Below are positions 3,401 through 62,289 of a stretch of 64,000 bases of DNA, one piece after another. The notes beneath the pieces were generated by a model. It ran no database searches. It had not been told where the DNA came from and saw only the letters and a program-made list of their open reading frames with translations. Source of the stretch: Nageia nagi (taxonomy: Eukaryota > Plantae > Pinophyta); the NCBI GenBank assembly GCA_050084985.1, contig JBITNC010000001.1:72354001-72418000 (forward strand), given 5' to 3'. Position numbers and translations under genes: made by a program. How positions within the stretch are numbered: the first letter of the stretch is position 1; every line of letters begins with the position of its first letter.

Positions 3401-4173
3401 TCATACTAGTGTTATTTTATGAGCAATTTCTGAGTTATTTTATTGCTGCAATTTATTTCTGCATTTTTATATTGAGGGTTTGCTAGAAATAAAGAAATAA
3501 GAAATAAAAGGAACATCATAGTATTCTCATATTTTTCATTTAAACATGTATGAAAAATCTCATCTTTTCTATGTAAGCTCAATTCCACACTTCTTGGAGG
3601 CATTAAGACTTCAAAACCTTCATTAGGTTCCCTAGGGAGCTTCCTTGATCAAAATTGAGAAGTTCCAAGCCCAAATGTGCCTCATTTTGAATTGTCTATG
3701 ACCCTTTGTCACCAAACTTTGCATTAACCATGAATCCACACCTTGCTTTTTCCATTGGACGCATATCTTCATCATCTCCAAGGGCAAAGGAACTTATTTT
3801 CCCATTTTGCACTTGGCTTATATTTAAGACTATTTGAATCAATTCTCGGCCATTTTTAAGAGCAAAGGTACTAAATTTTCCATTTTGCACTTGGCCAATC
3901 TTCAAAAACTGTGCTCACTGCCTATGAACATCATCCCCTAGAGTTAGGAGTCTTGAAAGCTCCAAAATTTATAGTTTGGCACACTGAACTGCCTCACAAC
4001 ATCTTGTGAATAGCCTTTTTGCACCATCTTTAGTGGCATCATCCCTTTCAAAATACTCTCTATCATCTAAGTCGACTTCTTCTACTGTCTTTCTCAGAAG
4101 TGGGTCTTCAGATTTGCAAAATAACAGGGTCCTCAAAATCTTGTATTTTGGGGTATGTTGTGCAAGCACAACA
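478..4173 (-). mobile_element. ORF-less copy (E0) of the giant TGTTG..CAACA family, interrupted by a solo LTR
   Basis: Minus-strand 5' terminus tgttgtgcttgcacaacataccccaaaatacaagattttgaggaccc matches the E4 start at 39800. 3590-3745 matches the reverse complement of 40080-40230, and 478-1060 matches the reverse complement of 44400-45010. No homolog of the family ORF lies between these parts. Confidence 0.8.
2668..3520 (+). mobile_element. Solo LTR related to LTR family A
   Basis: tgtaatgaccc...gaacatcata (terminal CA mutated to TA), perfect TSD GTATT (2663-2667 and 3521-3525). The first ~550 bp match 37142 onward; the 3' part differs. Confidence 0.85.
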
Positions 4174-14236: not shown

Positions 14237-15799
14237 AAAGTATATAACTTAAAATTCTCTGCAAAATGAAAATAAATTACTTCCCCTAATATGTTGGCAT
14301 CACTACAAGACACCAGTTTCTGAAACTCATCATGTTTTCTATCAACAAGCTTGTTGGTATGTTTTTTTTTCCTCACCCAAAACATGCACAAGATTTGAGC
14401 AAACAACGTTACATGCTTTCGCTTGAAAGGACTAGTCACCCCAAGTGCTCACATGGAATATGATCTTGATGGCTCAGCAGTCAAAGATGCATGTTGTTAA
14501 CCATATACAAGGGAAATACACGCTGGAGATCCTTTCCACAAATGAGGAATGACTACAAATATGAACGAAAGCGAAGAAAAATCACAAATGCAAGGACAAA
14601 CAAGGGATGAATGCAAGGGAATGCGAGGAAAGGAAAAGAGTTATGAAGACATCACCAAGGATACAGTGTCTTGGTAGGTTATCTTTAGATTCATTAAGGT
14701 CGATGTACTCACTATCAAGCCGGGCAGCAAATAGCAAATATGCTCAAATCACTACCAGACGAGAGCAATGAGCTGTAGGGTCTTTGTGGAAGACTCAATG
14801 GAGGGATGTAAAAAGTGAAGGTGTGAGTGCAAAAACCTAATCGAATGAGATAAAGACAAGCTATAAGCCTTAGAATATATCCACTTGCGTGCAAACTATG
14901 CAAAGAAGAATCAAACTCTTTTACATGAATAATCAATATGCAGCTCAAAGAAAGAACCATTCAGATATGCATAATCCCACAAATGATATTCCTCACAATA
15001 TAACTTTATGATTTTATTCCTCTAGATAAACACATTCATAATGATTTTCAACAACGAAACATGCATAGAACCCCTTATGCAACAATCTTCTATGCAATGG
15101 AATTTGAATCTCATATTATGCAAAGGCTCAAAATGATTACACAAATAAACCAATAGCCTGAATCTTAAAAATGCAAGAACTCCAATATATGATGCTTTCA
15201 TTACATGCAAACGTCCAATGCAAAATTGTACCAAGATCATATGCATAAATTCCTCATGTCAAAAATCCCTCTTGTCAAAATCCCTTTCTAAATGGCTCGA
15301 ATGGGGTATAAATAGGCCACCAGAAGTGTTTCCCGAAAGGCATCAAATTGGATATGGTGTGCACACATGCAACACACATATCGATATAAAATCAAATTGT
15401 CATAGAAAACTATGCAAGTGGCACTTAAAGCTGACAAAATATAAATGCCATTGCCAAAATGTGTCTAATCTATATCTAATCATGCAACAGAGAATTAGAT
15501 ATGCAATAAATAGTTTGAAAAAGTTTGACATCTAAACCGACGGGAGCAAAACCTCATCCTTGCACCGATCAGGGCCATAAATGAGTTTGACAGATTTGAT
15601 CTGGCGGGAGCAAAACCTTGTCCCTACACTAGTCAAATCGAAGTAAAACAAAGTCTGACATAACAATATGCATTAAACAAAGAAAGGATACCGTACGTAA
15701 AGTCTGCGGGGGAATTAGACCTAGGCCAGATCTGATTTGATACAAGCGGAATTCCACTCCTCGCTGGTGAGATCGTAGGACTCAATAGTCTCCTCCAAG

Positions 15800-18700
15800 A
15801 ACGCCACAATCTTCTGCACACCTCTGAGGTCATGTCGATACTATTGCCATTCTATCGAAAGTATCCTTCAATTTTTGGACATAGCCTGCATTTGGTGTCT
15901 CCAGATGACCATCTGCCTCTCATGAATGATGGGATGTCTTGCCTTCAGCAAGTTGAGATCATCAAGTTCAAGGTGCTCATGAATTAGATTTTGGGCCTCT
16001 GCCAATACTGCCTCCTTCTTGACATTGTTATCCTCCCCATGAATCTTGAGTTGATAAAGATATTCACTCATTTGTTCCTCAACCTACTTTCTCAAGGGGA
16101 CTTGATTTTTAGGATTGCATTGCACTTTTCCAATGCGTGGTTTAACCAATCATGATGATAGGTGAACTTGTGGCAATAGACCAATTTCTTAGGGTTGTTG
16201 GCATAAATGTGTTGCAAATGGGAAACATTGGGAAGATAATTATCCAACGTGTTGAGGTGTGCTGAAATTTGTGTCTTGAGATCTTTGATTTCAACACCTT
16301 CAGCAAGGAGCTTGTAAATCTGTGAAGACAATCTCTCGATGGCCTCCATTACTTTGTTCTTAAGCTGCTGCTCCATTAGTTCCCATCCTTCATGGAAGGA
16401 AGTTTGCTTCTGTAGGTGCAAAGGGGTGGTGCTAATTTTCTGGAACTCCTTTATAATCTTCCTACTTGCCATGAGTTCCTTCTTCAACCTCTTCATCTCC
16501 TTTTTGGCTTCATAGCCTTCCTGTTCCATAACTGCAACATTCTAAGTAACAATGTGTTTCCTGGTTGTCAACCCTAGTTTCACTAGCATCTTGAAAGTCT
16601 CAATGACACAGTCCTCCGTTCTTTGAGGGTGCTTCTATTTCGAGTAGCAATGGCTGATGGAGATCTCCTTTCGAGAGGTGGAGACGAAAGTGTCCACCCT
16701 CCGAATCTTCTCTCCATATGAAAGTTCTTCCTCATCATTTCAAAATGTAGTCCTTGTCTTTGTCTTCATCATGAGCCGTACTCATGCCAAGGGCTTTAAG
16801 GCAAAGCATTCAGGTCAAGATCTCTATGTTTGGTTGCTGGCTGAGGGGGAAACCTTTGAACCAACAATCTTTCTTTATTAATCTTCTTGACCTCCTTCGC
16901 TAGGTGGTCTGAACTACGGCCATTTCCTTGCCTTGATGCTCTTCCTGCCTCCTCTTCTTTTTCTACTCCTTAGTCTCTCCTTTGTCTTCTTCATCTGCTC
17001 CATTACTGCCTATAGATAAGCTTTTGTTCCGGAGCTGGGGAGATCTCTCATGACTCCTCTTGGTAGAGGATTTATGCGAAGAAGGGACTTCTTCCTATGT
17101 TCGGCAAGAGAGGACTTGGATGCAACCACCTATCTAGTGCATTTCTTCTCAATTATCTGGACGTCATCATCATAGGTACCAATGTCCACTATCTCATCAT
17201 TCAGAATGGTTTCAATCTCGGTTTCATCAGGTTCTGAAGCACCTATAAGCTATGTTCCTCTTGCTTAGGCATATTGGCAACATTGTCAACATCATCTTCT
17301 TCTTCTTCTTCTCTTTCGCTATGGCTCTCCGATTCTTCTCCAGAATCTTCCACCATGCGGTCAGATCTTCCTCAGTTTCTTCATCGGAAGAAGAAGAGGA
17401 ACGTTTAGAGATAGAGCTAGAACTTGGTTGTAAAGGGGGAACTTTCTCTCGTGGATCAAGAGAATGGGTGGATTTGAAAGGAATTGCCTTGGTGGACGAA
17501 CCACTATCACAAGCTGCATTCACCACATCGTCCAGCACATCCGAAGGGAGAGCATGATATCAGCATCTCTGAGATCAACCTCTATTACTTTGCACTTGCT
17601 GGGACCTAGGATGGGCTACCTTGAGGCCTCTTGTCTTTTTTTTGCAGGAAGTAAGAGTGTCTTTCCTGGCGAGGACGTGGTGTAGTAGTAGCAGGAGACT
17701 TGATCCTTAGAGGGACCTCTTTAGATTTGGGCTTGGTAGTTCGAGGCCTTTGAGGAGGCTTTTCTGCTTGGAGGGGAGCTTTTTTCTTGTTCAAAAGAGC
17801 ATCTATGCATGCAATTTCCCCTTTATCATGCACATTTCTGTATTTCTCCTCATTTCCCAAAGGCTTGTGTGGAAACGCAATGGGCCTATGGAAAGCTGTC
17901 TCATAGAAATGTGCTATTATCCCCTTAGGATCATAGTTCTTAGCAGTATCTTCCTTGAAGAAGTTGTACTGCTGTAGCTCTTCCCTCATATGTGTTGCCT
18001 CCACCCACATCTGGCACACATATCTGGATATAGAAATAGGCATGTTTATAGTGGCATTTTTCTTCTTCCAGACCTTCTCCTTCAGGAACAAAAGTTGCCT
18101 GGCAAACTCCATGAGAATCATCCTGTCGTTGGCATATCTTGGCAGGAAGAGGGGTTGCTCTTCTGAGTCATAACCCTGATGTATGTAAAATCAACGTCCT
18201 GCAGAAAGAAATCTGCATGTACACTGATGGTTGAATAGCTGCATCAAAAATCCTCTTGACAACGGACTCCCCTTTGATATCTTTGTAGATATCATATTCT
18301 AGTAATCGATCCTCTCATAGAAGTACTGGAACTTGTTTTGGTACCATCACTTTTAGTATGCTCTCCACACAGGGATGTTCTTCTGCCCCAAGTATCTTTC
18401 GTCAGCAAACTCCTTGGATCTAGCTTTGCTATGCAACAATAGTACACAAGATACGAGTTCATATAGAATGTTTTTGACAAGCCGGAATAGGCCAACTAAT
18501 GGCACAGGGCATCACTGATTACCCTAGCCCATCGGATAGGTCTCCCGGAATTGATTGTTACAATGAAACTTGTGAACTCTCTCTTGTACTTAACATCATT
18601 TTCCTGACCAGTCACCCTCGACATAAGAGAGATCCAACTTTGCCACAATTGGCAAAAATTCTTCTCTTCATGCACTGATCAACCTCTGCCTTGAAGGTTT

Positions 18701-19240
18701 TGGTATTCTTCAAGAAGGTAGGGTCAAATGTAGTCCTTAGGCTGGGTTGTGGAGTCATGGAACTCCTCAAAATAAGCTAGTGTATAATCGTCCCCATACC
18801 TTTTCTAGCCAAATCTGCTTCAACTCCAGTAGGGGCAAAGTGCATGATCACACTGCCTTCTGTGTCCTGCAGGACCCTTTTGTCATACTCACACTTCTTG
18901 GCCAACTAACTGCACAAGTCAGGAAAAGGTATTGCAAATGGCATCATAGCGGCTTGAACAAATTGCATGCGTGGATAAGCTCCTTTGATAAGTCCTCTTT
19001 GCCGATGGAGGACGTGGAGGCTAGGGTTAGAATAGGGTCCAAGTTTCCCCAATCTGTATCACCAACGAAGATATATCTCCCCTTGAATTTGGCTTCAAGG
19101 AGCTCTTGCTTGTTTTTCCATTGAAATTCTATCAAACTTTCCTTCAGGATCTGGTCATCTAGCTTTTGGTCACATGCCTCTCGAACAACTGGCTTTGAAC
19201 CTTCTTGGCTTTAATGAAGGTGCTTGATGTTCGAAGCCAT
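15800..19240 (-). pseudogene. Family ORF of E1, decayed, ~1150 codons, function unknown
   Basis: Fragments IFVGDTDWGNLDP, FYMNSYLVYY, LPRYANDRMILMEFARQL, YDPKGIIAHFY and HKPLGNEEKYRN, then a Ser/Glu-rich linker and a coiled-coil-like C-terminus. TATAAATA on the minus strand at 19636-19643. End is approximate. Confidence 0.75.
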
Positions 19241-20159
19241 GTAGAAACATTACTTATCTCCTCCCCTTTTCAACTCCTGATGTTGACCAATTTGGGCGCA
19301 CAATTTTGGATGAGTGCAAAAGCACAACCTTAAAAGCATGGGATTGGGCCTAGGTCAATTAGTCAATCTCAGGACCCAATTCTTCACTCTAGATTTGGTT
19401 CGCATGGTTTTGAATGAGTGCTTTGGGCACAACTTTGAAAGTATGTGACTAGGTCTAGAGGCTAGACTGAAATGCCTTAGCCAAAAAGGCTAATTGGATA
19501 TACAACGTCCCCAAAACCTTCTTTCCTCCTTGGTCACACGTTTTGGAACGGATGCCTAAGTATGCATGAGAAATGGTGTGATTGGGAAAGGGCGTGATTT
19601 TGAAATGGATGATAGAAATGATCAAGGGGTGGGAGTATTTATAGATTCATGTATACGCCAGGTGCCACCTTTCAATTGATCCGTCTAGGGGTCAAATAGA
19701 GGGCCAAAAACAAGAGCGCATGTTTCTTGAAGGGTGCAAAAGGACGTGATGAAAATGAAGCGACTAGGTCTTTAAGCACTTAGCCAAATTCCAGACTAGA
19801 TTTGAAGTTTAACTCTTGGTTGCAACCTTTTGGAGGGGTGCTAAAAGCATGTGCCTCAATCCTTGTGCTAAGTCTTTAGCATGCTTCCCAATGCCTAAGA
19901 TCTCAAGAAAACTTCAAAAAATGCAAGTGGTCCTTGGTCATATGTCAGGAGGGAGTGCTTTCTCTTCTCTACTCCCACGCTTTGCCCAACAAGTTTGCAA
20001 ACAGAAAGAAGGGGCTGACTTCCCTTTTATAGCCCTCTGGATAGGATAGGTGTCACCATGGGATAGGCATGGAAGGAGGTCCAGTGCATGGGTTCCCACT
20101 TGTCAACCGACGAAATCCAACATTTAGCCAATTTTCCTTCCTTATTTTGGTTGCATGGT

Positions 20160-20770
20160 TCTGGACGAGTGCAAAAGGACTCCTAAAAACCTTGCGACAA
20201 GTCTTGAGCCCAAGAAAATGACTAAGTATCCTCCACCTCGGTCGCACCGTTTTAGACAAGTGCAAAATGACTCCACAAAAAGCATGCGACAACCTTAAAG
20301 CTCAAAAAAATGCTAAGTATGAAAGTTGCTCTGGTCGCATCGTTTTTGGTGAGTGCAAAAGGACTCACCCAAAAACATGCAACAACTCTGAAAAATACTA
20401 AGTATAGAAGTTGCCATCTTGGTCGCACCTTTTCCAAGGGGTGCAAAAGGACTCCAATGAAAACATGCAATGCTAAATGATGCAAAAAAATGCTAAGTGT
20501 GAGGTGTTCACCCCGTTCGCACCTTTTCTAGAGGGTGCTAAAGCACTCCCTCAAAAACATACAATAGGCTGAAAATAGTTTTTTCTTTTCATTTTTAACA
20601 AAAACAACACATGAAATGCAGATGGAATCTCTACAACATAGAGGCCTTTAGGATGCCTTCAACACACGAACATGCAAGTGATAAAAAATGGAGAAGGTTG
20701 GTTAGTCCCATAGTTTGAGAGGGGTGCTAAAGCACTCATTGAAACACATGCGACATGCTTGAAAATGCGT
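20160..20770. repeat. ~90-bp degenerate tandem array in E1, upstream of the ORF
   Basis: Units gtgcaaaaggactc...catgcgacaa...ctaagtat...ggtcgcacc at about 20169, 20260, 20353, 20441 and 20535, with an outlier at ~20724. Confidence 0.8.
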
Positions 20771-21874
20771 GTTTTGACTTCAGCTATCATGAAAATGCAA
20801 TTTAAACATGTTACGAAGACTAGACCGAAAGGTATGCATTCTCTTTGACAAATTTCTTTCATGCAATTCCCTCTTTGTTTCCTTTAGGGTTCTCAAAATG
20901 CAAAAAATTTTGGGGTGTTGTGCCTCATCCTCATCATGCCCAAAAGAAATAGTACATTGCTTTCATAAAAATCAGAATTCAACTAGTACCTTTGTGGAAT
21001 GTTTCCATGGCTGCCCAAGTTTTGAATTTATCTTCCTTTTCTCCCTACAACTGATCATAGCACCTTTACACATGAAATTTTCTGTTTTACCTTGCCCAAG
21101 TTGAGCAAAAGAACATATATGCTATTTGCAACTCATCATATTAGTCTCAACCCTTATTGCATCAAAAATCATGCAATGTACAGCCATATTTGTATAAATT
21201 GTAGCCATGCTAATTGTCATCAAAACAGTCCAAAGCATTTTGCAATGTAGAATACCAAGTATGAAGAAAGATCTACATGCCAATTAAACTCACCAATCAA
21301 ATCAGTTTTAGAAGTGTCTTCCAACTCCATCAATCTGAAAATGAAGTGATCATTTTCCCATTTGTAACTGTAACACATTCTCAAAATGAAATCAGAAATC
21401 ATCAAGAGAAAATTATGAACAAATGCATGCCAAGATTCTACAATAAGTGCAACCCATCTATCCCATTTGCCTTTTAAACCATACTCCAAATGTACACAAG
21501 TGTTCCAATCAAGTGTGGAATTAGTCCTTTTGCTGTTCCAAAACTTCATCAAATTTGCAACTGTAATCCTCTCAATTTTTGCAATCATGGTGCTTCTTTG
21601 TTGGCTGTTCCTGTTGTGCCTACACAACTCACCCCAAAATGTGGCAATTTTGGGGACCCTTTGCAACTTAGTATCGTCAAGCATCTAGCTGGAACCACCT
21701 CTCCTCACCTCCAATAGATTCGAAATCAAGCCGATCACCCACCCAGTCTCAATCATGCCATATTGAGTAGTCAAAACCCTCGAAAATGGCTAAGTATGGA
21801 GAGTTTAAGTCGAACTTGGGAAGTCCGAGTCATGAACAGACCAAGTACGCTGGATCAAGGCCACTCCCAAGTTT

Positions 21875-22838
21875 GTGCACATGCTCCAGAAAGACAAAAT
21901 CTTGCCTTTCTGGGATGTGCGCTCGGGCCAGGAGGGCATTTGGTTTCGAGTCAAGTCTGAAAACTCAAACTAGGTCACTCTTGGACCTAGCGCATGCCAT
22001 TTAAAAGACAAAATCCTGTCTTTCTAGGGCATGCACCAAGCTCAAGAAGACCTCCTAGATGAAATGAAGGCCACAAAGAGAGAAGTTAAAGCATATCAAG
22101 GTTGGCACATGCCTCCAAAAGACAACATCTTGTCTTTTTGGAGCACGTCGCCCAACTTGGAGACTACGAGGAAGGACTTGGTTCCTGGAAAGATGGAGTG
22201 CACTCACCCAAGGGGCTGGTGCATGCCTCAAAAAGACACAATCTTGTCTTTTAGAGCATGCGCCTAGCCCAGGAAGGTTCCAGGATGAGACAAAGTGAAA
22301 ATTTGGCTCAAGTATGAAGCCTTCGAAGTTCGGATCTCGCTCCAACATGACTAGAGGGGCTGGCGCATTCCTTAAAAGGAAAGATTCATGAATTTTGGGA
22401 GCATGTGCCAAGGTTGGCGAGACACCAGGATGGAGCAAGATTGAAAATTTGACAAAGTCTCGAGAGTAGGAGACCAAAACAAGATAAATCCAATCATCTG
22501 CAACCCAGCGCATGCCCCAAGAAGACAAGTTCATGACTTTCTGTACCATGCGCCCAGACTGCGGAAGCTGGAGAAGTTGGAGGGTGTTTCAAAAAGACAA
22601 AATCTTGTCTTTTCAAACCGTGCGCCAGGCTTTGGGGCATCCTTTCTAGTCAGTTGAGGAAAATGAACAAGTTGGACCCTAGGGAAGTGAGCATCAAGCA
22701 AGATCAAGTCTCAGGATGGATCTCCAAGGTCAAGTTGGATGAACAAGAGTGCAAGGAAGGCCAACGTGGGGAATACATCCACCCCCAAGGTTGGTGCATG
22801 CTCTAGAAAGACAAAATCCTGTCTTTTCTGAGCATAGG
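21875..22838 (+). repeat. Array of 8 palindromic ~50-bp repeats separated by dissimilar spacers (E2)
   Basis: Consensus ggcgcatgcctcaaaaagacaaaatcttgtcttttgggagcatgcgcc at about 21875, 21990, 22103, 22215, 22360, 22507, 22585 and 22790. Confidence 0.9.
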
Positions 22839-22992
22839 TTGGAAGACACCCTAAACCCCCCATGCTTGGTCTTGGTCGGCAGGAAGTGAAGTTTCATGAT
22901 GGCACACATCTCGAGGTCAGCCACTTGGATGGTTGGGATGTATTTTTCTCCATAACCTAGCCGACTAGGGTTTCAAGAAAGCCCACATCAGC

Positions 22993-23000
22993 TATAAATA
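22993..23000 (+). promoter_or_regulatory. TATA box upstream of the E2 ORF
   Basis: gcccacatcagcTATAAATA, identical in E5 (63403-63410), about 200 bp before the ATG. Confidence 0.6.
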
Positions 23001-24381
23001 CCAACTTGGGGACCTTATTTTCCCAAATTCAAATCACACTCTTCTACATTTGCGTCAAAATTGTAGAATTTTGAGTTTGAAATTTGCCTATTTGCTTGGG
23101 AAGGCTTGCGCAAGGGAACAAGGAGGGAGGTGTGGAGGTCACAGGCTTGCAGAAAAGCCAACACATCACCTTGAAAGGTCCTCGACACTTGCTAAAACAT
23201 CATGGCTAGTTCCCAAAGCAATTCGGCCAAGGATTGCGCGAGATCTGGAGTGCATCAGGCAAAGGTGTATCATCACTATATGCGAGCGAGGAGACTCCCT
23301 ATCCCAGGGGGCTAAGTTCTCCAAGAACAGGTTGTGCACTATCGGAGACACAGACTGGCAGAACGTGGATCCAATATAGATGAGAGAAAAGATCAAAAAC
23401 AAGCCATTTAGTGAGTTGAAACAGGATATTGTCTTCTTCTCTGGGCTCTCAAACTGTGCTTTTGTCCCATTCACAACCCATTCTAGAAGTTGGTCAACAT
23501 TGGAAGAAAGGTGAAAGGGTGCTCCGCGACATCAAGGGTGATGTCATCATGGACTTTGGCCTCGAAGGCATTAAGGCCGCATTTTTGTGGACTTCGGAGG
23601 GCAATTTTGAGTATATGGAGGAGCAATCGTTGGCATGATATCGAGACACCAATAGAGCAGCCGTAGCAATCAAGAGTTGGATGTTCGATGAGCACCATGG
23701 CTTGAAGGGTAACACGCTCATCAATGCCCCTTGCTCCCACTTCCATCTCTCCGTCGAATTAACGATCCTCATGTTGTCACGAGTTCTCGGGAAGGAGGAT
23801 GCGTCCAAGTTCTGGAAAGAGTTCTTTAGCTTCATCGTGGAGATAGCCAGGGGGAAGAAGATCAAATGGAGTAAGGTGTTGAGCGATAGCATCATGGACC
23901 AGCTATCATCAGTGGGAACCACACACAATTTTCACCTTAATTCTTACTTGATATACCTGTTGCTCCACAGCAAGCAAAGGCCTACTGCCTTAGGGGAGGC
24001 TGATTTGAACGAGAAGGGAACATATGCTATGTGGAAGTGCTACCCAAAGTGGAAGATCGAGAGGAGATGGGAGAATTTCGCAATGAACTATGATGGATGG
24101 GAATACGAAATCTACAAGGAGCTTAAAGGAGAGATCACTAATTACAGAATCTCCAAGTCATCTAGGATGCGTTGAGGAAACATGGAGACTTATTCGTCCA
24201 TCACCAACATTACTCCTACATTCGTCTCTACGGATCAACTGTGGAGCCATATTAACTACCTCGGTACGTGAGCAACAGGATGCTCCTGATGGAGATGATG
24301 AGGCAGTTGACCTACCTGCATGAGCATGTTTGGCAGAAGAAGTCAGTCACTTCCAATCTGCCAGTCATAGTAGGAGACAAT

Positions 24382-27300
24382 TGTTGGGATGCTTTTCTTT
24401 CATGTGCGGGACACTTTGAATATTGTGGGCGGAACTTAGGAGATCCCAAGCAACATAGTTTGGGAATGCGTGACCAATTCCCTTGGTTAAAAAGGATTGT
24501 GTACCTCCAAGGCTCTTGGCGAAACACCCTGCCCGACGAACCCAACGTCGTGACGTTGTAAGGTTTGTTCGCTTGGTGTGTTTTCTGAATAGGGATAGAT
24601 AAATAAAAAGGTGCGAAATCCCTCTTTGGAATCAGCCTCAATGGAATGGAATGAGAGGTTTGTAGTCTATTAACCAACAATGTTTTATTCTTTGATGTAT
24701 AGAGTTTGTTCGAAACTTTTGTGTGTGGATTTAACGATCAGATTTGGTATGAAAGCATAAAGCAAGCATAAAGAAAGCGTAAAGGCAATACTGTAAAAGT
24801 TGAAGGATGACACCTTGGAGAAAGAAGGGATACTGACGGGAAAGTGTCTAAGAGTTGATCTCTTTCGAATCGGTTAAAGACTCTTCATCCAATTCATCCA
24901 ACCTTACAAGCAAACGACTTAACGTTCGAATTGCTTCTGAAAGGAGCGGGAGGAACGTCAAATGGGTGGAAACGGAAGGTTTCAACATGAGTGGATCATG
25001 GTTTTGGATGAAAGACTTAAAAAGATGTCATAGAAGTAGAAATCTGACATAGAATACCCAATCAACTTGCGTGTTAAGGATTGAGCAACAAGCATAGGTA
25101 GGCTTCAAGCACTTTTAAAGTTTTTTAGAGATAACTTCCCTAAAGCTCATGAGTTTTCAAAGGAATAAAACAAAAGTACACAAACCCACTATGAGTGCCC
25201 TCAAAGAATCAATCAATAACACCAATGTGAAATGTTTGTAACTAAAGTCTTTGCTTTAACCACTTTGTATTAATTTGAAAAGAGTTGTGCAAGGATACAT
25301 CAATTTGCTACTCTCTTACAAAAGTTCTCTCTTCAAGTTTGAAGTGTTTTGCTTCAGAATGAAGTCCTTACAAAAATGAGACCCTTGGTCTCTTACTTGT
25401 AGATTTTGGAAATCCTAAAAATGACTTTTGAAACCCTATAAATGAGTTTCAAAACCCTAACCCTAATTGCAAATTAAAAGCTAATTACAAGCTGATTAAA
25501 AATGCTAAATAAAGATTACAATTGGACTTAGTGGAAATCCACTAACTTAGCCAAATATTTGGCTTACATATCAAAAACTTGCCACAATAGACCCCTTTCT
25601 ATTCTGGCAATTGTGGGAAGATAACTTGCTCGTTTGTGGTGATTTTGGTTTCAAAGTCATCTCCCATGAACGCTTCTACGTTCTTGATGGCATGGTGGAT
25701 TGTCCGGAGGGTTCCTTCATTTGATAGCAGGTTGTCTAGGATGGCCTTATTGGTTTTGACCATTTCTTTGCTCCAATCAGCCAATCTCATCCCTCCTATC
25801 ATCTGTTTTCTTATTTTCAGGTTGTGTGGATCCTCGGAACTATCTGCTCTATGACAGTGGCGTGGATCATTGTCATCACTGTCATATACTTCTTAATGTT
25901 GCTGTTTTCCTCAAACAAGGGTAGTTGGAATTCGTATTACCTTGCCTATTTACTGATGACAACTTTGAGCTGGGTTTTGGTGTATATGAAGTCGAAGGAC
26001 TTGGCTTTGATATAGAACAAGTAATTGTACAGTTGGAACCAATCTATGCAAAAATACAGTACGAAAGGATGATGGGTTGCCCTTCTCCGTAGGTCTAGCA
26101 TTGTAGACTACCCATTCTTCCATCTGATGGTTAATTGGTCTATTTTATCCGCCTGAGAATGTGACCCCTTCTCCTCAATATAAAAATTTACCATGCTTGA
26201 GTGGAGTGCTTTAATGGCCTCAATAAGGTTCTTGGTCCATCCTTGTTTCAGGGCATTGATTCCAGTATTTAAGTCAACCTGCTTTTCGATGTCTTGAATT
26301 GTCAAATTAGCATCCCAGACTTCGTTATCAAGCATTTCCTACCTCATCACTATCTTTTTCAGCTTCCGGTTCTCTAACTTTAATAACGTACCGGATTCCC
26401 TCAATGCCTGTGCATTTGTGATGATGTTGTGCTTCATTCCCAATGGGCTAACAATCTTTGTAGAGGCCTCTTCTCTCTCGATGGTGAGGGCAAACTTTCC
26501 GGTACTAGTTTTGTTTTTCCTTGAGTAAAGCTTGTCCTTGTAGGTGACTTTTTCTTATAGCGGTGATAAAAGTATCAATCTGCTGAAGTTCCTCATTTTC
26601 ATCTTTGGAATCTTCTCCTTCGCGAGGATGATTTGAACTCAAACTGGCCATCACTGCAGCCATGTCAAAGCGGGGTTCCTAAGGTTGTTTTTCGTAGGAA
26701 ACCATCTCTCCGTCTTTGATGATTTCGATGTCATGCTCTACTTGTTTTCTTTTTCTCCTCTGTCCTTCATTTTCTCCCTCATCCTCCTGATTTCCATCAT
26801 CTCCCCTGAAGATGATGCCATGGTCCTGGGTCTTGAAGTAACCTTCTGAGCTTATGTTGTTGTGGTCCTCCAAGATGGTGTGTTTGCGATGCCAGTTTTT
26901 GAGGAGCGGAATTTGGAGTATTTGTTCCTGTTGCTTGTACAATTATATCGACTGAGGGATTGCCTTCGTTAAGGATCTCTACTGAATGATCAGTGGTGAC
27001 CCGCTTAAAGGCAGTATATTTGTTTATCTCCATTTTGGTGTTGATGATTGCTACAAAATCCATCTCTTCATTGGTCTCTGATGAGTCACTTGGTCCATAT
27101 TTATCGGAATTGGATGATGATGTGCAGGGGTTTTGATTCAGGCGCATACCATTCCGATTCAAACCTTGCGGGAGATTTATCTTTTTTTGCAAGTGTTTGA
27201 ATGGTTGAGTGATCAGGCCTGCTCTTCTGAGGTCTAGGATTTCATTCCTCATACTCGTGATAGTTATTTCAATGGTTTGTCTGGGGATGCTATTGGTAGC

Positions 27301-30300
27301 ATACTGCCCATTCTGTCCTTGAGCCAGGGTTACCGAAGGGGATATTATGAGAATAACATACTTGTGGCTCGGGGGTACAATGATCCGTGCATTGGCTCTT
27401 AACCCGGTAGCTTCTTCGGCTTCATGCTGTTTTTGTTCTTTTTTCAGCTCCTTGTGAATTCGTTGAACGTGCAAGGTGTCTTGAATGTTCCTGTACCTCT
27501 CGATGCTACCAAGGGACTGGTGTGGGTATGATGAGCTCCAAGTCTTCTACAAGAATGCATCAATCATTGCATCGGGATCATAGTAATCTGTCAGCTACTT
27601 CTATCAGGAATTCATACAACTCCAGTGCTTGTTTGATCACTTCAATTTGTCGCTAGGTGGTGCATTCATAATTCCTGATGACAATAGGTGATTGGTAAGT
27701 GGTCGCCGCTTTCTTTACCTATATCTTGTCATGTACATTTAGCATCTTGGAAATTCCACAAGGATGATATGATCACTTGGATAATGGGTAGCCTGTAAGG
27801 GGCTTCGTTGGAGCCATAGACCCTGAGGTAGGTGACTTCTATGTCTTCGGCAAAGAAGTCCGCATGTCCCTTGATAGCGGTAGCAACCTCTTTGGATATT
27901 CTGTATATGTTGGCTCTGCCTAGGATTTCTTCGTAAATTTTGCCTTCAAAACGATCGGTTCATCATCGTCTAGTTTCTAGTATTCCATTTATTATGGCAT
28001 AAAAACCGAGGGTAATTTTCCCACACTAGATGTGTAGGGTTGTACGTATACTGGGTATTGTCAATTGAAGTTACCCTTTCCCTACCATGAGGGAGTAGGA
28101 AAACTAGGTAGGATTTCATATAGAATTTCTTGCTCCTCTAAATGTGTTTCAGTTGCTGAGCCAAGGAATCACTAATTACTTTGCTCCACCTAACACCTTT
28201 ACCACTACTGATTAGCTCTATAAACCCCGCAAATTCCGGCCAAAATTTGCTATCATCTTTCTGTTGTCACTTGGAAAGCATGGATATTAGTCTAGGAGAC
28301 TACTGGATAGAACTCTCCTTTATTTGGCGTTGCTAAGGCTCTCCTGTGAGATGCTTGCGGTCATTGGCCAACCAATGTCTGATCAAATAAACTGTAGGTT
28401 TCAAACCCTTGTAGAACTTCAAGGAGTCTTGCATGCTGTATGATAAGCCTTCACCTTTCCATGTGAATGCCCTTTCTATTCCTTCCTTAGAGAAGTCCAT
28501 GATTACCTCGTTTCTTCTATTAGGAGTCTCCGCTTTCAGATGTCGCAATGCTTTCCTAGCTTCGTAACATAGCTCAGGGAAGGGGGTTTCAAATGGCACC
28601 ATAGAAGCTGATAGTAATAAGGAAGTTTTCAAGGTGTCCTTCACTATCGAAAGTTGGATCCAATGTATGTATTTTCATTAGAGTTTTAATTGGATTGAGG
28701 GAGTTACAATTGTATCTCCGATCTCACTCATTGGTCAATGATTCTTGCGATGGGCATCACGGACTCTGACGTATGTTCAAGACTGATAAGACTGTCCATC
28801 GTGAGCCTTTTTTGCTTTCTGTCTTTGATATTCTAGCAACTAACGCCATCTTGTCCGGTCTAAGAGAACAACACAGTGTTAGAGGAGTCTTGGGAAGCTT
28901 GTGGCACTTTCAAGGCAAGCTAAGAGAATTTTTCAAAAATTGGATTTTGGGCATTTTTTTCTCTTGTGTGCCATCATCAAAAAATATCAAGGTTTGCAAT
29001 TTTCAAAGCCTTTGGGTGAGTTTAAGGTGACACAAAGGGAGCTGCCTCAAAGGGTAATGCCTTGGCAAAAATCTTGGATGATTGGAGAATTTTCAAGTTT
29101 TTCTCAAAAAAAGTTGACTTTTTCAATAGGAAAAAGTGGTGAAATTGTGCAAAATTGGCAAATGGTGCCGGAATCAAGTTCTAACAACTTGGATGGGGAA
29201 GGAATGGGGAAGGTGTTTCAAACTTTGAAACGGACTTCAGAAACAATTTTTGGAGTTTTCTGAAATTGTTTTGGATTTTTTTCAAGAAATGAGGATATTA
29301 AGCACTCAGATCTTGGATCTTATGAATTTTTTTGTTTTTTTAGCTGAAAATAAAAGTTGATCACATGGATAAAGGGTATCCAAAAAAGTGATCAAATTTG
29401 AAATTTGGAAAAAAAATAAATTTTCAAGTGTTTGAAGGTTTGAAAAATGAGTTTTTGTGAAAAAAATCCTCAAAACTTGGAGAAAATGGAGTTCATGTGG
29501 ATGGAGGATGCTTGGACTTCGAATTTGAATGGAGTTTGTGGAAGTGGCAAGATACTAAGTGTTTGAAAAATCCTCCAAGGTTGGAAAAATGTCTTCTTTT
29601 CTCACTTGGCGCTCAAATCTCAAAAATTTGGGCAGCATAAAGGTGCAAAAATGAGAGTGAGCAAAAAGGAGGGGGTATGCTTATATGTATAGGTCTAGGG
29701 GTGTCAAAAGTGCCACATGTCACTTCCTATCAACCTTGGAGTTTAACACTTGCACTTTGGACTATTCTCTCTCAAACCCAACATTGGAAATCATGAGAAA
29801 ACTTGGAAAAAAGTCAAAAGCTGCGCCTAGATGGGAAAGGAGCAGATTTGGTGCAATGGGGGAGGTCTTGGAAGCAAAATGATGGCCTTGGAATGCTCTA
29901 CAACCTCCATGCTTCAGATTTGGGTTTTGAATTTTGAGATTTTTGAAGGAAAATCCAAATTTTTTGAGTTTTCTCAGCCCTTAGATCCTTTTTGGATGCA
30001 AAAAGTGGTTTTTAGGAGTTTGTGTGAACCAAATTGCACAAATGATAGATCAAAATGGTGTAGAATCACACCATCTACCTTATAGAAATGAAAAATTGCA
30101 ATTTTGGGCCTTTTAGGGTTCAAGGGGGCTATGTGCAGTTTTAGGATGTTTTAGGCAAGTTTTGAAAAATGAAAAAAATGGGGGATAACTTGCAAAACCA
30201 CGCCTACCTTTTAGGGGGGGAAATTAGTTTTTGAGCAAATTTGCAAGAGGCAAAGATGCTTGCATTTGGATTTTGAACCCAACCTTTCTTTCCAATTTTG

Positions 30301-32321
30301 TTTTTGGGATTTTTGAAATTTCTTGGAAAATTTTGGAGCTCTCCTGATTGGCCGATCCAAATTTTGGGATTTTGAGAGAGTTGATCAACTTTTTTCGAAA
30401 AACTTAAAACATGAAAGAGATGCAAAGTTGGATTTCCCATACTCCTAGGATCAAAATTTTTGATTTTTGAGGAAACATGAGGGCTTGCAAGCTAGGGTAG
30501 GTTTAAGGGGCTTTGACATGTTTTTTGGAAATTTAGAAGATGGGGGAAACAAGCCAAAACTGACCGCCTAGCTTTTTGATGGGGTAAACTTGATTTTTTT
30601 GCAACATTGCAAGAGGAAATGTTGATCTCCTTTGAATTTTGCACCCTACATCACTTTTCTTTTTTTATTTAACCATTTTGGAAAATTTTGAGCCCTCTCA
30701 TTGGTCAATCGAAATTTGATGATTTGAGGAGGTAGATTTCATTTTCTTAGGAAAGTCAAATCATGAAACTTGTGTGGAATCCCATCTTATACCCTTGAAG
30801 GTCAAATTTTCAATTTTTTTCAAATTTGGGGCACAAGAAGGGTAGGCGCAGGTTTTAGGATGTTTGGGGTGTTTTGAAGATTTTAAAAAATGAGGAAAAC
30901 ACCTAAAACTAGCGCCTAGCTCTAGGAGGGTCAAAATTTGCTCAATTTCAAAAATTCCAGGAGGAAAGGTGCCTAATTTTTGATTTTCCACCCTACTTCA
31001 TTCTTAAATTTACATTTTTGACACTTTTGGGAATATTGGAAATCTTGGAGCATTTTCATTGGCTGCCTTTTTGCTCATTTTCCCATTTTTCTCATTTTCG
31101 ATGGAGCAAAACTCATCCAAATCGCGAACTTGAAAGACCAATTTGATGTAGAATTGTGATCCCCACGCTCCTGAGATCAAAAATTGCTATTTCGGATCAA
31201 TCTGGGCCTCCCAAAAGGTAGGCGCAGGTTTTGAGGGGAATAGGCTATTTTTTGAAATTTACTAAGTGAGGGAAAACTTGCAAAAGTCCCCCCTAACTTT
31301 TCGGAGGTCAAAAATCAATTTTTTTTGAAATTTCCAAGAGTAGAGTGGCCTTAATTTGTCATTTGGCACCACATCTCTCTCTCGGATTTTAATTCTGAGC
31401 ACTTTGGAAAAAACTCTATTTTCGGCTCAAATCGAAGCTTTTCAGAGGCCAAAACGCTCATTTCTTCATCTTGGCCCACAAGGGTGCTCAAACTTGTTTT
31501 CCTTATTCATTCCTGGCTATACTGTATATTCCTTACCTTCTTCGTCTTTTGCATTTCCGGCATTTTCGGGCTCTAAGTATGAATTTCGACCATTTTTGGC
31601 TTTTTCGAACATTTCCTATCTCGAACGGTGAAAAAAGGTTATTTTCAGCAGTTTCGGTATTTCAAGCTCAAAGTCTTTATTTTGGCCTTTCCAAACTCAA
31701 GATATGCAAAAAGCCTCATTTCTTGCCTTTCCGGGCATTTTCAAGCATTATGAGCTGAAACTTGCATTTTTGGTCATTTTCGAGTTTTTCGGGTTCAAAT
31801 CGTGCAAAAACGCACATTTTCAGCATAGTGACCACTTCCAAGCTCAAAATTGACCAAAATGCGCTTTTCCATGCTATTGACCATTTTCTGGCTCCCCGTG
31901 CTCAAAATTGACAAAAACATGCATTTTTGTCATCTTAACTGTATCCACTGCTTTTAGGCTCAAACTCGATGAAAAATGCACCTTTTGTCGTCTTGGCGCC
32001 TTTGTTGCTCAACTTTTCCAAAATGACACTTTTTTTGCCTTGATGGCCATTCGCTCAAAACTCCACTGTTTGGTTGCTGTCGCAATCCAAAACTTCGTCC
32101 TCTAAGATACTGCTCGAGACTAAGCCCTGACTTGGCCACTGGTTGAGTTGAATTGTTTCCATGACTTCGAGGCATGCTCGTGCATTGTTTGATCAATTCG
32201 CCATTTTGTGTATCCATATCGGTCATAAGTTGATCATGCCTAGACAATGTTGCTCATTGCTGTTTGAAAAAATTAGATCCTCAAAATGTTGCTACTTGGA
32301 GTGTGTTATGTGGGTGCAACA
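24382..32321 (-). mobile_element. Giant TG..CA element, copy E3 (7.9 kb), nested in the ORF of E2
   Basis: Minus strand starts tgttgcacccacataacacactccaag and ends aaaagcatcccaaca. TSD acaat/agaac (3 of 5 match), and excision restores the host reading frame exactly. Confidence 0.85.
25599..28849 (-). pseudogene. Family ORF of E3, decayed, ~1080 codons
   Basis: SMVPFETPFPELCYEA, VIMDFSKEGIERAFTW, HVQRIHKEL, KYVILIISP and WTKNLIEAIK; colinear with the E4 ORF. Confidence 0.8.
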
Positions 32322-35031
32322 AGAACCAGTGTAGAGTTGGGGCGGACCTGGCTTCCATGATAGATGAGTTGGGAAGGTACAAATTCGAGAAGATGCTGAC
32401 TGTTAATCACTATGACCCTGAGCACCGAATCCATGGCTTCTATATGGAGAGGAAGAGAGCCTATGAGCATAGGCCACTTAGAGATGAGGAGCCGTTTTGA
32501 AATGTCAGCATTGAAGTGGAAGTGAATTCGTGCCAAGATGCAAGAGGAGGCTCAGAAGCAACAATGGGAAGTAGAAGCATCAATTCATAAGAAGTTGTCC
32601 TGATCTCGGGGAAGGAGACCACAAGAATCTACCTCTAGGGTCACCCAGTTTCCACTAACGATTGAGGAACCCATTGGGCAAAATGCGTCCATGCATGGGA
32701 AGGTTCCCGTTGAGCAGGTAGCACAATAGGTAAGGAAGACATTTGATGAACATGATGTGAGGGAATTGGAGCATGTGGCCACCAACAAGGAACTGAGATG
32801 TGCGAGAAACCAGAGACCCGATTCGTCTCCACCCAAAGGCCAGCGAGGACAATAGTGTCACGTCCGTCTTAGACCATTCCATGATGAGGGTCAAAGTCCT
32901 CAAGCGATTTATATGAAGACCATGGCACTCCTCATGAAGAACAAGAAGATGGACAGCGAGATGATGATCGACAGAGTATGCTTGAAGAGGGGGAGTATGA
33001 GAGCATTCCGAAAGATGAGTTAGATGAAGGGCCAGGAGATGAGCATGCAGCTAGTACTATTCTTGAAAGAGACATACCGGATGCATAGGGTGAGGAAGAA
33101 CCGTCATTGGAGATCTTGAAGGAAGTCCATAACCACGCGACTTCAGTACCTTCAACATCTGAAAGGAAAGACCAAGATCCTACCTCGAAGTCAATACCAA
33201 GAAGAGCCCAACTGAAGAGAGGGTCTCAGTCCAGATTGTCAACAACACTCGAGGAGATTGCGGGGCAGAATGAAAGATCTTTTAAGAAGATCCAAGCAAC
33301 ACCGTCACCATCACCGAAGCAGTGGGGTGTAGACATGGACGAGTGCCTCAATGTCTTCAACATGGACATGGGGGATTGATAATTTGACAACTTAATAGAA
33401 ACTTTGCTGTGCCGAATTTCTCTTAAGTGTTAAAAGTGGTGTATGTGGATGCTATTGTGATTATGTACTTGTTCATGTTGGAATAGTGGATGTGAATGAA
33501 TGTTAGATAGTGCTATCTATGTTTATTCTATCATTGCTTGATATTAGTTCAATTGACTTGGTGCATCTCCTAAACTTCATTGAGGTCTATGAGAGCTTGC
33601 TTGCTTATCTTAAGAAGTAGTTGATTGGTATCTCGTGGATGATCTTTCACTATTTGCAGTATTTGGTTGGTAGTCTTGGGATGTCTCACTAACATTGTTC
33701 GTTGTCGGAACTTCATCCCGTTCCTTTTGTCTTACCTCGATCCCATCCTATCTCATTGCCCTAGCTTCACGCTCCATCTACTCAGCTATTCGTGTTGTTG
33801 GCTGGTGGATTGGATAGTGGGTGCCTAGAACCTGCATTGAACCCAAGTGAGTTGGCTTCCAAGAGTCTTTACCAATCCCGTGAGCTTGTATGCCCACTCT
33901 CACATCCTGTCCCTACAGTCTTTCCACCATCTTTTCTTTCTTTATTTTCTTTTATTTTACACTCTCTTTTCGCAATTTTCCCACCCCCAATTTTCCCTTT
34001 TCAGCATTCAAGAAACAACCTTGATAAAGCCCAGACGCAAAACTCAAAGTCCCTTGAATTCACACATGATATTGATGTTGGTGGCAGCTCTAAACATCTC
34101 AACCGTCTCCTGGGTTATCCTTACATAGTCCACGAAGCCAACCTTTGCGGTAACTACTCCCCATAGCGGGAGGGAGTAATGTCCCTCTACCTGAGGTGTT
34201 GGCGTTTCTCCCACTACTTTCGGGTAGGAAAGAAAAACACCCCAACTGTTCCAACTGTCTAAAAGGCTGAAAATATCATGTGAACATGTATGATGGCAAA
34301 TGTACCAATTGTCCTCATTTTCTTTTGCAATTTTTCTGATTTTTAAATCAGATTTATTGGCTACAAAAAAGTTGGAATTTTGCACCATTCTATCCACATA
34401 TAAGACTTCAAAAGTCCACTCCAAATACCAAAACTGAATCAGCAATTTGTAAATCCATCAAAGCCACAAAAAGAAGTGAAAAGATGCCACGTATGGCTAT
34501 GAAAAAGTATCTCCTTTTGCAATGTTCCATGTGAGAAGTGTTCTACACCACCTACCATGCATCCACATGAGAAAAATCAACATTTTATTTGAAGGAACCA
34601 TGGCTGTAGTAATTTTACCTTTACATAGCAGAATATATGAAATGTCAAGTGATTGTCCTCCTCCCATGAGATGAGTATGAAACATGTACCATGGCTGAAT
34701 ATGCTTGTGCTTCTCTCCTCCAAAAGAACTCTTACCATATATGAAAAGAATTCTTGGATCCCATGCATTTAAAGGTTGATCACAATTCTCAAGTGCAATT
34801 GATCTTTCCCTCACAAAACTCTTCACACAAGGAAAGCTAAGGCCATTATGATCACAATTATTTAAGGGCTTAATTTGGAGTTCTAACCCATATCTCTCCA
34901 AACTTTCACAAACTGAAAATTCTTCAACACCCATTTGTATCTTTCCCATAAAGTATGCAAAAAACAAATCTGAAACATTCTCTAACTCTTTTCCCAAATC
35001 ATGAGCATCATGTTTCTCATTGAATTCATTC

Positions 35032-37105: not shown

Positions 37106-37141
37106 CCCTGGGAGAACTTACCTCTTAAGCTGAATTGTCAC

Positions 37142-39799: not shown

Positions 39800-42700
39800 T
39801 ATTGTTCCCGCATAACACACCCCCAAAAATACAAGATTTTGGGTACCGAATTTTTGCAAATATGGGAATCCAAGTTATACCAAGTTCATGAAATGAACTA
39901 GCTAGGATGACTTGAGGGTTGATTCTTAGCAGTCTTAAGGGATGATATAATGGAATGGTACATGGCGGTTATCTGCTGGGATTCCTTGGGAGATTCAAAG
40001 TATTCAGTCAACAGTTTCTTTGAGACCACGACTAGTTCAGGATGATCAAGTGATGAAGATATACACGTAGTGAGAAATGTAAAGTGTGGATTCATTGTGA
40101 ATTCAAAGTTTGGGGACAAAGGTTGTAGACAATTCAAAATGAGACACATTTAAGCTTGGAACCTCTCAGTTTGGATCAAAGATGCTCCCTAGAGGACTAA
40201 GTGAAGAATTTGGGGTCTTAATGCCTTCAAGAGGAATGGAGTTGTGCTTACATTGAAAAGACAGTTTCTCATACAAGTTTGATGGAAAATGTGTAGATAC
40301 CCTCAAGAGAAGCTTGGGAAAAGAATAACATTCAAACTTGTAACTTTTCAATTTCCTCCAAAGTTGCTCATTCCCTCTCCGGGGGCAGTTTTTTGTGGTT
40401 TACTCATTCAAAGAGAGAAAACATGTGCCTAGCAAGACCATGCACACAAGAAATCTCAAAATTGCAAGTTGACCGATCAAAATTGTGGCATGTGGGTATG
40501 GTTGGAAGTCATGAAATGAGCATTTTTGCTCTTGAGAATTTCGAAAATACATTAAAATCACCTCATGGAGACATAGGTGCAGATTTTAGGAGTTTAACCC
40601 CCCTAAAAAGAAATAATGTGCGCCTAGATTGTTTGTGCACTTGTTTTTGAGGTTTACCAAATTGAAAAACTAAAACTTGGGTGTTGTAGAGCTAGGGAAA
40701 TCATGCAATTTTGGTCAAGCAAGCACATAAGAATGGTCAAAATTGTGCCCAAGAAGACTAGGTGCACATTTTCTAGTTTATCTCATTTCAAGCAAAGGAA
40801 AAACTTGCACCTTACAAAAGATGGGTCAAATCTTTGTCAAGATTGCAAATTGAAGGCATGATGAGGTGCACAATCCAATTCCATACGAGATTGATCTTGG
40901 AATCATTCAAAAGACCAAGTTTAACCCCTCCAAATCATGGCGCACATTTCTAGGCTATAGGGGTGGTAATGCTTTGAATTTCATGAGTTTTGTGGAATTA
41001 ACATCACATTTCTAGGCTATAAGGTTGTTAATTCCACACGAGATTGATCTTGGAATCATTCAAAACCCCTCCAAATTTGAAGCACTCCATCTCTAGCAAC
41101 CATGAGTTTTGCTTGGAAATGATGATAAATGTGCCCAAGTTTCAAAATATCCCAAAGTTTGCTTTTGAAAGACCTCCCCCTTTGAGTTGCTAATGCTTCC
41201 ACTGCTTCAATTTTCCTCAAAAATGCTTAAAACTTCACAATACTGACATCCTTGATGGCACACTTGGAATTAATTCTTAAAAATTCCAAAATTCTAGAAA
41301 ATTTCTTTTTTTCCTAGAAAGTTCACAAAAGCTTCACAAAGACCCTCTAATGGTATGTTATTCATATGATAGGGTTACTATGACATTTGTCGTTAGGAAT
41401 ATCAAAGAGAGGAAACAAGCGAGACTAAAGATGAAAAGCCCCATTGAGTTTGAGAAGATGGCGAAACTCTACAAGCTATTGCAAAATTTCAAGATCACTT
41501 AAGTGAGATTGGAGACATTCAGTTCTCCAACATTGATCCGGTGCAACATTGATGAAGATTCAATTGATGAACCAAGTTCACTATCTCAAGACAGTTTGCA
41601 ACAATCTCTTTTGGTGGAACCATCAATGATACCATATGCCTCCCCTCTTCCAAGACTTTGTTATGAAGTGGGTCAATATTGCAACTACGCCACAAGAATC
41701 CTTTTTGATAGAGGTGGCAACAAAATTATGGACTTCACATAAGCAAATATTGGAAACGCTTTCGCTTGGACAAGTGAAGGCATATCATACAAAGTACAAG
41801 AATATTTGAAATTCTATAAAGATTTGAAGCCTCCAAGTGACTTAATCAAATATTGGCTGGCAGATGATTGCAAAAACCTCATGGGAAAAGCCTTGACTTA
41901 GCCTAAGAGGGGATATTTGTATCACACAGTGTCAAAGATCATAAGTATGCTATCAAGGGTGATTGGACAAAAGGATGAGTCGATGTTTTGACTAGAGTTC
42001 GTAGGATTCATTGATCAAATCAGTTAGGGCAAGGGCATACATTGGAGTAAAGTCATTAGTGCTTGCTTGGCTTCAAAATTAACCAACGTTAGGGTAGACA
42101 AGAAGTTCTATATGAACTCTTACTTGGTGTTCTTACTCATTGATGGTAAAGAAAGAAGAACCACCATTGCCAATACTAAATTCTTGTATGATCCTCTACA
42201 TCCTATTGGGAAAGCTACCAATGATTTTTGGTGCAAAATAGATGGATTGAAGACAACTTGAAGATGATGAATGGAAGCTTTGAGTGCCGAATTTATGATG
42301 AGATCAAAGGCATAAGGAAGATGTTCAAGATATTAGATCAAGCTATCGCAGCTCTCAAGGGAAATGTAGACTTTTACTTGCAGGACCCAAACCTCACTTA
42401 CATCAGGGTATATGGTTCGAAGGAAGCTTCGTGGAAGCGACCCCATTTTGCCAGTGATCGACTCATCCTCGTGGAATTCTCAAGGCACTTGGTGAATGTA
42501 CATGATAAGGTATTGGCTAAGAAGGCTTCTTCTACATATCAATTATTGATTATCATGAGAGGATATGAATGTACGGGTTGGTATCAAATTCCATTGATGA
42601 GACGCAAATTAGTACTTAATCATTTTGAAACGAAAGTGGTAGCAAATCAATATGATCCAAATGGGATGATTGATGCCTTTTCCAGAAAAACTTGGCAGTC

Positions 42701-61964: not shown

Positions 61965-62289
61965 AGTCTACTCTCTCAAATTGTGTCCCTCAAGCACTTC
62001 TAAATGCATCTGTTGTGCCTTACACAACTCGCCCCCTAAATTTTGCAATTTCGAGGACCCTCGACAATCTGGAGCCTTGAATGTCAAGTCAAAACCATTT
62101 CCCCTTGTCTCCAGTAAATCCATAACCTGAAATTGAAGTGTAATCGCCTATCCAGCCCTAGCCATCTCAAAGCGTATAGTAAAACCTCATAAATTAACTA
62201 AGTCTGGCTGAGTGTAGATCAAGGTCTAAGTGGTATAGGGAAGTCCAAGTCAAGATTCAAGCTGAAACGAACGGACCCAGGCTCCTCCT

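Follow-up and report, generated by a model that had tools for sequence, protein, structure and literature searches.

In a 64,000-nt stretch of the genome of the conifer Nageia nagi (contig JBITNC010000001.1, positions 72,354,001 to 72,418,000; hereafter the window), one protein-coding gene recurs in five decayed copies, E1 to E5, which lie in repeat-bearing units with ends of the long terminal repeat (LTR) type. The best explanation that we can offer, in which we have evenly divided confidence, is that this is an accessory gene of a gymnosperm Tat-like Gypsy lineage, carried in giant LTRs that were left behind as solo LTRs, and that its product, with the predicted fold of VANC and plant mobile domain (PMD) proteins, would likely bind the repeat motifs of its own LTR and so counter silencing by the host.

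The gene and its protein family

The window is repeat-rich plant DNA with a GC content of 30-47% and decayed Gypsy pieces. A previous sequence-only reading had described conserved blocks recurring in E1-E5, not all of them in every copy, and this held: the blocks keep the same collinear order at the five sites, with some missing per copy, and a profile of the conserved domain (A4) maps to all five, each of which is broken by stops and frameshifts. A4 was built from locus L001 and parts of E1-E4, for which a match is built in; most of the sequences outside it (E5, L022, L023, the second and third E2 pieces and the initial half of E1) match at E values of 1e-5 to 1e-36, and two short N-terminal pieces at 0.003-0.005 only, the best E in the reversed-window control being 2.3. 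Protein searches by word index with single copies as query returned no relatives, while the profile search did find them. The span 23202-33379 given in that reading has at its two ends parts of a single gene, E2, interrupted by a nested 7.9 kb insertion that carries E3, a relation which had been missed: profile positions 309-381 stop at 24381, positions 381-454 begin at 32324, and contigs of other copies cross the E2/E3 junction insertion-free.

In the four of nine domain comparisons with unsaturated dS, dN/dS was 0.29 (0.19-0.41), 0.24 (0.15-0.33), 0.26 (0.13-0.40) and 0.35 (0.16-0.67), and it was 0.36 in the C-terminal part. The ORF (open reading frame) therefore evolved under past purifying selection, as had been proposed; in the remaining five comparisons, where dS was saturated, pS was about twofold above pN. 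The domain is followed by the low-complexity Ser/Glu/Lys-rich linker, which carries basic clusters, and by the variable C-terminus that had been described. Also as described, the copies and intact relatives tested gave no Pfam match to gag, protease, reverse transcriptase (RT), RNase H or integrase, and no transmembrane stretch was present in five proteins (top 19-residue Kyte-Doolittle means, 0.95-1.38), which argues against the env-like character that had been considered. As to the other affinities proposed at that point, a relationship with retrotransposon accessory ORFs stands, and the PMD lead does so at the level of fold, whereas membership by sequence was not borne out: PMD (PF10536), Transposase_32 (PF20167), Transposase_28 (PF04195) and ATHILA (PF03078) gave no Pfam match at the curated cut-off among the families listed for 110 aligned members. 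DUF1985 and DUF287 gave none among the families listed (25 of 35) for the same members, nor in six long proteins. Sequence profiles of the PDB returned no matches, nor did the viral contigs and prokaryote genomes scanned. Two Atlas scores, 0.79 and 0.77, are leads only, the second pointing weakly to an ATHILA-carrying cluster, and relative P0042 gave no Atlas lead.

Intact relatives of 981-1011 aa are found on contigs 12-33 kb long. The named relatives in a set of 29 proteins come only from Taxus chinensis and Cryptomeria, and the family has in this respect the gymnosperm host of TatII elements; the Taxus KI387 gene models are members annotated as host hypothetical genes. Locus L026, from the viral contigs, was rejected as a relative, being a chance match. 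In a Cryptomeria mannosyltransferase model (P0076, XP_057824563.1) the first ~70 residues correspond to the conserved domain, by mis-annotation or exonisation.

Predicted fold

The predicted structure of the first ~300 residues matches VANC21 (PDB 9LNK) over ~240 residues at 9% identity. This is the only structural match, and VANC21 is an anti-silencer solved in its DNA-bound form. A structural similarity of VANC/DUF1985 to PMD proteins has been reported, and a VANC/PMD fold is probable. Residues 300-480, the second half of the domain, were modelled with poor quality. Foldseek on PDB and on the viral structure models of BFVD gave no match at E<=0.001, an absence that is no evidence for a different fold; no DDE, capsid or recombinase fold was among the structural matches listed. 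Of the traits that mark VANC/DUF1985 genes, the VANC21 fold is thus predicted here, but the location in a MuDR/VANDAL element beside a transposase is not found: no transposase is present in the units, whose ends are of the LTR type.

The units as probable solo LTRs

The units follow a common order (Table 1), with a TGTTG-type start, a repeat array, a TATA-like box, the ORF, 0.9-1.4 kb of non-coding DNA and a CAACA-type end. The box, found by pattern, precedes the ORF in E1, E2 and E5 and lies in the last non-coding part in E4 (at 44408, 981 nt ahead of the unit end) and E0b. No gag-pol and no inner LTR pair were found inside the units. ORF-less versions exist, namely E0b and L019, the latter following E3 at 83% yet skipping the ORF. 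This location of the gene inside LTR-type units, beside family-specific repeat motifs, had escaped the sequence-only reading. The E2 empty site is present, as a joint of 21604 to 34246, in three of four sequencing runs, and contigs break at the E3 CA terminus (24382) with unlike flanks in all four (19, 9, 6 and 4 contigs); the boundaries are therefore real and the family multi-copy. The TG...CA termini of LTRs are seen in E1 and E3, with TG/CT in E2, TA/CA in E4 and TGTTG starts in E5 and E0b. A target duplication of the 4-6 bp expected is perfect in two of the four complete units, E2 (GTTCC at both flanks) and E4, extends to three of five letters in E3, and was not found on comparing the flanks of E1.

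The link to a retrotransposon comes from a scan for the shared 3' end, which gave 25 metagenome loci, eight of them kept and the other 17 set aside as chance similarities, either unlike the window or with unrelated DNA upstream. In L013 the shared end is followed, 6 nt after CA, by TGGCGCTAGAAGGAGGG, which we take to be a primer binding site (PBS) of the tRNA-Asn type, and then by a frame with RVT_1; gag and protease are absent after the PBS, the RT is interrupted by another element, and the sequenced part of the LTR holds no ORF. The last ~700 nt of E2 align to this PBS-linked LTR with a score of 210, compared with a shuffle maximum of 44, and the L013 family also resembles E2 over the first 62 nt (84%) and in the repeats, so that homology to an LTR followed by PBS and pol is found for E2. 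An LTR of the L013 family is seen too as a ~1.8 kb insertion flanked by GATCC, with its start in L001 and its end in L011 (overlap 95% alike). In addition, two pairs of relatives, all starting at the N-terminus, lie on equally long contigs (23,536 and 23,518); both are mutual nearest neighbours among 12 proteins, with three private residues in one pair and none in the other. Such pairs would fit the two LTRs of one element, in a lineage distant from that of the window.

Some results weigh against this interpretation. No ORF-bearing unit was seen beside a PBS or polypurine tract (PPT), such a site being present at none of five window ends, one of eight locus ends and none of seven starts. No PBS was found at nine 3' ends (five from the window and four from E3-type loci) and no PPT at seven starts. 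The ends of E3 and E4 resemble the L013 family weakly or not significantly. Placed on the E2 pre-ORF region, the L013 TATA region gave no significant alignment (score 35, shuffle 40), and the ORF may lie in either U3 or R/U5. No sequence beyond the E3 end is common to the contigs (agreement 0.43-0.53), which break at branch points, so that a PBS there could be missed. Even so, we consider it probable that the units are solo LTRs and that the gene lies inside the LTR. TatII is the likeliest lineage, given its gymnosperm hosts, 5/4-bp target site duplications, Asp/Asn PBS and extra ORFs (eORF-5'F, 23%; eORF-3'F, 26%; PMC6317226); the near-equal shares of the two are what an LTR-borne ORF would produce.

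Three observations concern the same loci. A single insertion of the ORF-less LTR, at one site in an E3-type ORF, is visible from opposite sides at L001:5002 and L011:1585. Members of the LTR group often insert into one another (also in L023). A second Gypsy element, with LTR, gag, RT, RNase H and integrase, is nested in the RT of the PBS-linked element (L013:5208-1).

Repeat arrays and candidate target motifs

The E2 array contains the 20-bp palindrome AAAGACA-N6-TGTCTTT in five exact copies and seven with up to two mismatches, and five exact copies lie in E5 (62422-63018). The form AAAGACA-N6-TG(T/A)CTTT occurs ten times in E2 and E5 and nowhere else in the window, with 0.01 expected, and the ORF-less family has the sister palindrome AAAGTCA-N6-TGACTTT. 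A different, GCGCCTA-type motif is shared by E3, E4 and E0, and no recurring perfect palindrome was found in the E1 or E3/E4/E0 arrays. These family-specific arrays adjoin the gene, and their divergence parallels its own. The targets of VANC proteins are short motifs, accumulated in tandem and different from family to family (PMC5735166). Tandem arrays are also frequent in Tat elements (PMC6317226), and because of this the parallel with VANC targets is suggestive, not proof.

Proposed mechanism and alternatives

The units would be LTRs excised by LTR-LTR recombination, and the full element would therefore hold the gene twice. The ORF would be transcribed from the TATA-like box downstream of the array, binding sites, promoter and gene being carried together by the LTR. 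The N-terminal domain may recognise the motif of its own family, with a dimer probably occupying the palindrome of E2/E5, and the C-terminal coiled-coil-like part may serve for self-association. Binding would lift or block DNA-methylation silencing at the LTR promoter, and relieved silencing could raise expression of the gene and the element in a positive feedback, while ORF-less LTRs could use the protein in trans. LTR-LTR recombination would finally leave the entire cassette as a solo LTR, to decay as in the window. By analogy with VANC, the chances that the protein binds its own LTR and acts against silencing seem to us balanced. The full proposal, in which a conifer Tat-like LTR is a self-contained anti-silencing cassette made of site array, promoter and a ~1000-aa VANC-fold protein co-evolving with its motif, is put forward tentatively, as something that may well prove wrong.

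A protein with the same location and fold could do another job, as a plain trans-activator or repressor of the LTR, or as a chromatin tether or nuclear-import factor of the integration complex, leaving silencing marks unaffected. The antisense accessory ORFs of Grande, Retand and PvRetro13 encode nuclear proteins with SMC-like or Transposase_28 domains, proposed to aid import or regulation (PMC7264820), and host proteins with the PMD fold are described as acting in silencing or against Polycomb; the unit-in-unit insertions (E3 in E2; L001, L011) would fit heterochromatin targeting, and the basic clusters of the linker are also compatible with such roles. Divergence of the neighbouring arrays with the gene, as described for VANC targets, and an anti-silencer as the sole structural match make this unlikely, though worth keeping in mind. 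It is improbable that the units are entire non-autonomous elements which end in short TG/CA sequences and are moved as such by an integrase or transposase in trans, with the VANC-like gene as cargo. The missing PBS and PPT would be explained in that way, DNA transposons carry VANC itself, and most plant LTRs on record, which reach about 5 kb (PMC6317226), are shorter than the units, but the family homologous to both ends of E2 has a PBS and RT next to it in L013, the inverted ends span 5-6 bp only, the ORF pairs sit on equally long 23.5 kb contigs, and solo formation is common in the window, where other solo LTRs with duplications occur (e.g. 37142-37932, GTCAC).

That the product belongs to the element's catalytic or structural machinery, as an unrecognised gag or a transposase or recombinase moving the unit itself, is very improbable: one ORF per unit between TG/CA ends with a 5-bp duplication could suggest it, but Pfam and the structural matches listed gave no such domain (residues 300-480, poorly modelled, are barely tested in this regard), and the same ends occur on ORF-less units (E0b, L019, the L013 family). 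We give almost no credence to an env-like or cell-to-cell movement protein, a name used for the sense-strand 3' accessory ORFs of Athila and SIRE (PMC7264820) and towards which the weak Atlas lead (0.77) would point, as hydrophobic segments and matches to viral models are absent and the top fold match is a DNA-binding protein. A retrotransposon accessory ORF, not a gag or a catalytic transposase, is the reading supported by these results.

Table 1. Features of the gene-bearing units in the window.
Feature	Position	Strand	Remarks
Unit E2	21612..34247	+	Likely solo LTR; 4.69 kb without nested E3; TGTTG start, CCCCAACT end
E2 array	21890..22826	+	~114-bp period, palindrome; candidate binding sites
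E2 TATA-like box	22992..23000	+	CTATAAATA; 210 nt 5' of E2 ATG; putative function
E2 ORF, first domain part	23202..24381	+	Broken by stops/frameshifts; frames, profile
E2 ORF, second part	32324..33379	+	Domain end, acidic/Ser-rich linker, short C-terminus; frames, profile
E2 domain	23323-24381 and 32324-32542	+	A4 profile
Unit E3	24382..32321	-	7.94 kb, TGTTG...CAACA; inserted in E2 ORF; flanks ACAAT/AGAAC
E3 ORF (broken)	25600..28849	-	Domain, linker, coiled-coil-like C-terminal part; left end approximate, from L001
E3 domain	28731-27436	-	A4 profile
E3 array	29800..31410	-	Degenerate, ~360-bp period, GCGCCTA-type motif, upstream of ORF
Unit E1	14352..20936	-	6.6 kb; TGATG start, CCAACA end; flanks unlike
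E1 ORF (broken)	15720..19250	-	Domain, linker, coiled-coil-like part 16092-16541; frames, profile
E1 domain	19123-17792	-	A4 profile
E1 array	20144..20575	-	~92-bp period, G(A/G)GTGC(A/T)AAA motif
Unit E4	39800..45388	+	5.59 kb; TATTG start, CCAACA end; target duplication CATCC at both sides
E4 ORF (broken)	41428..44200	+	Domain, linker, C-terminal part homologous to E3; frames, profile
E4 domain	41428-42800	+	A4 profile
Unit E5	62011..64000	+	Cut by window end; TGTTG start; TATA-like box 63402; ATG 63623
E5 domain	63821-63949	+	A4 profile; ATG 63623; copy cut by window end
Unit E0b	478..4173	-	E3/E4 relative, same start and repeat array, ORF-less; starts TGTTG
E0a	1..477	+	3' end of further E3-type unit; 84% identical to 24382-24834

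Other features of the window

At window positions 1-1192, E0a (to 477, +) and E0b (from 478, -) meet at very nearly the homologous position, the terminal ~450 bp appearing inverted with respect to the rest, by inversion or by insertion into a sister copy. Another family has LTRs of ~800 bp, two of which lie head to head at 36311-37932, 92% alike and 36 bp apart; the left one has a PBS of the tRNA-Met type (36312, minus strand) and the right one (37142-37932) is the solo LTR with the GTCAC duplication. To the same family belong a decayed Gypsy element at 9988-12863 on the minus strand (LTR 12863-12061, gag-like, protease with Pfam E 3e-4, RT-like) and a degenerate LTR copy at 2668-3467, inserted in E0b. 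A ~625-bp TGTA...TACA segment just 5' of E5 (61340-61965) may be another solo LTR, and an (AT)n-type microsatellite is located at 53775-53910. An open frame of 365 codons (13151-14248, minus strand) has an internal ~700-bp duplication and no Pfam match; frames resembling it at 21220-21684 and 34497-35141 both flank E2, whose empty site is multi-copy.

Significance

The function of the extra ORFs of plant retrotransposons is an open question (PMC7264820, PMC6317226). For one unannotated gymnosperm family there are now a fold prediction, a candidate for the target motif and relatives that are intact in nature, which makes the question directly testable. Tat-like extra ORFs and transposable-element proteins with the PMD/VANC fold were known already; what is new, as far as the literature searched goes, is a family from gymnosperms that has no match in Pfam, has a predicted VANC-like fold and is apparently encoded in an LTR, next to family-specific motifs. 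That literature yielded no case of a plant LTR holding a protein gene, and no retrotransposon ORF with the VANC fold apart from the PMD link. Reported detection limits are 6 kb for the LTR with 20 kb of spacing (PMC6317226), or 15 kb (PMC13477047); LTRs of 5-8 kb and elements of ~23 kb lie at or beyond these, and such elements are therefore probably detected too rarely, with their ORFs entered as hypothetical genes of the host. If our explanation is true, a VANC-type arms-race system would exist in an LTR retrotransposon and in gymnosperms, placing the VANC fold on mobile elements far beyond eudicot VANCs. The cassette would survive solo-LTR formation, the host's main removal route, and could activate ORF-less family members in trans, which could help to explain the continued build-up of retrotransposons in conifer giga-genomes.

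Comparison with known systems

Genes encoded in LTRs are found in retroviruses: sag of mouse mammary tumour virus and nef of human immunodeficiency virus, which overlaps U3, are also coding ORFs in the LTR and occur at either end once the element is integrated, whereas the proteins are unrelated, the ORFs and LTRs much shorter and the hosts animals. The host proteins MAIN, MAIL1 and MAIL2 (PMD-C) likely belong to the same fold superfamily and work through motifs in promoters, of which one is palindromic (10.1101/2024.09.27.615353), but they are products of host genes, mostly of angiosperms, that counteract Polycomb, and have no sequence match to the window family. Closer in setting are the extra ORFs of OTA Gypsy elements, i.e. 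PMD-A in Ogre, Transposase_28 in Retand, ATHILA ORF-1 and eORF-5'F/3'F in TatII, with which the window family shares the character of a Tat-like accessory ORF that encodes a helical domain, a linker and a coiled coil and is close to tandem repeats. They are described in the internal region (PMC7264820, PMC6317226), while the ORF of the window is apparently situated in the LTR; PMC6317226 lists no CDD domain for the TatII eORFs, and the window family has no Pfam match.

The parallels extend furthest with VANC21 and VANC6 of the Arabidopsis VANDAL Mutator-like DNA transposons (DUF1985/DUF287): the predicted fold over ~240 residues, an accessory non-catalytic protein in which a conserved core is combined with variable parts, non-coding element DNA with family-specific motifs in tandem arrays, and a coiled-coil region, VANC21 being a predicted dimer. 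The two differ in that the window family sits on an LTR retrotransposon unit of a gymnosperm, and VANC on a MuDR element and described as dicot-specific; in the lack of a DUF1985 Pfam match, with 9% identity; and in the candidate motif, a 20-bp palindrome as opposed to an asymmetric VANC word of 8-9 bp. By prediction, then, the family would be VANC-like in its action and yet no member of VANC, as it has no DUF1985 match and is not carried by a MuDR element.
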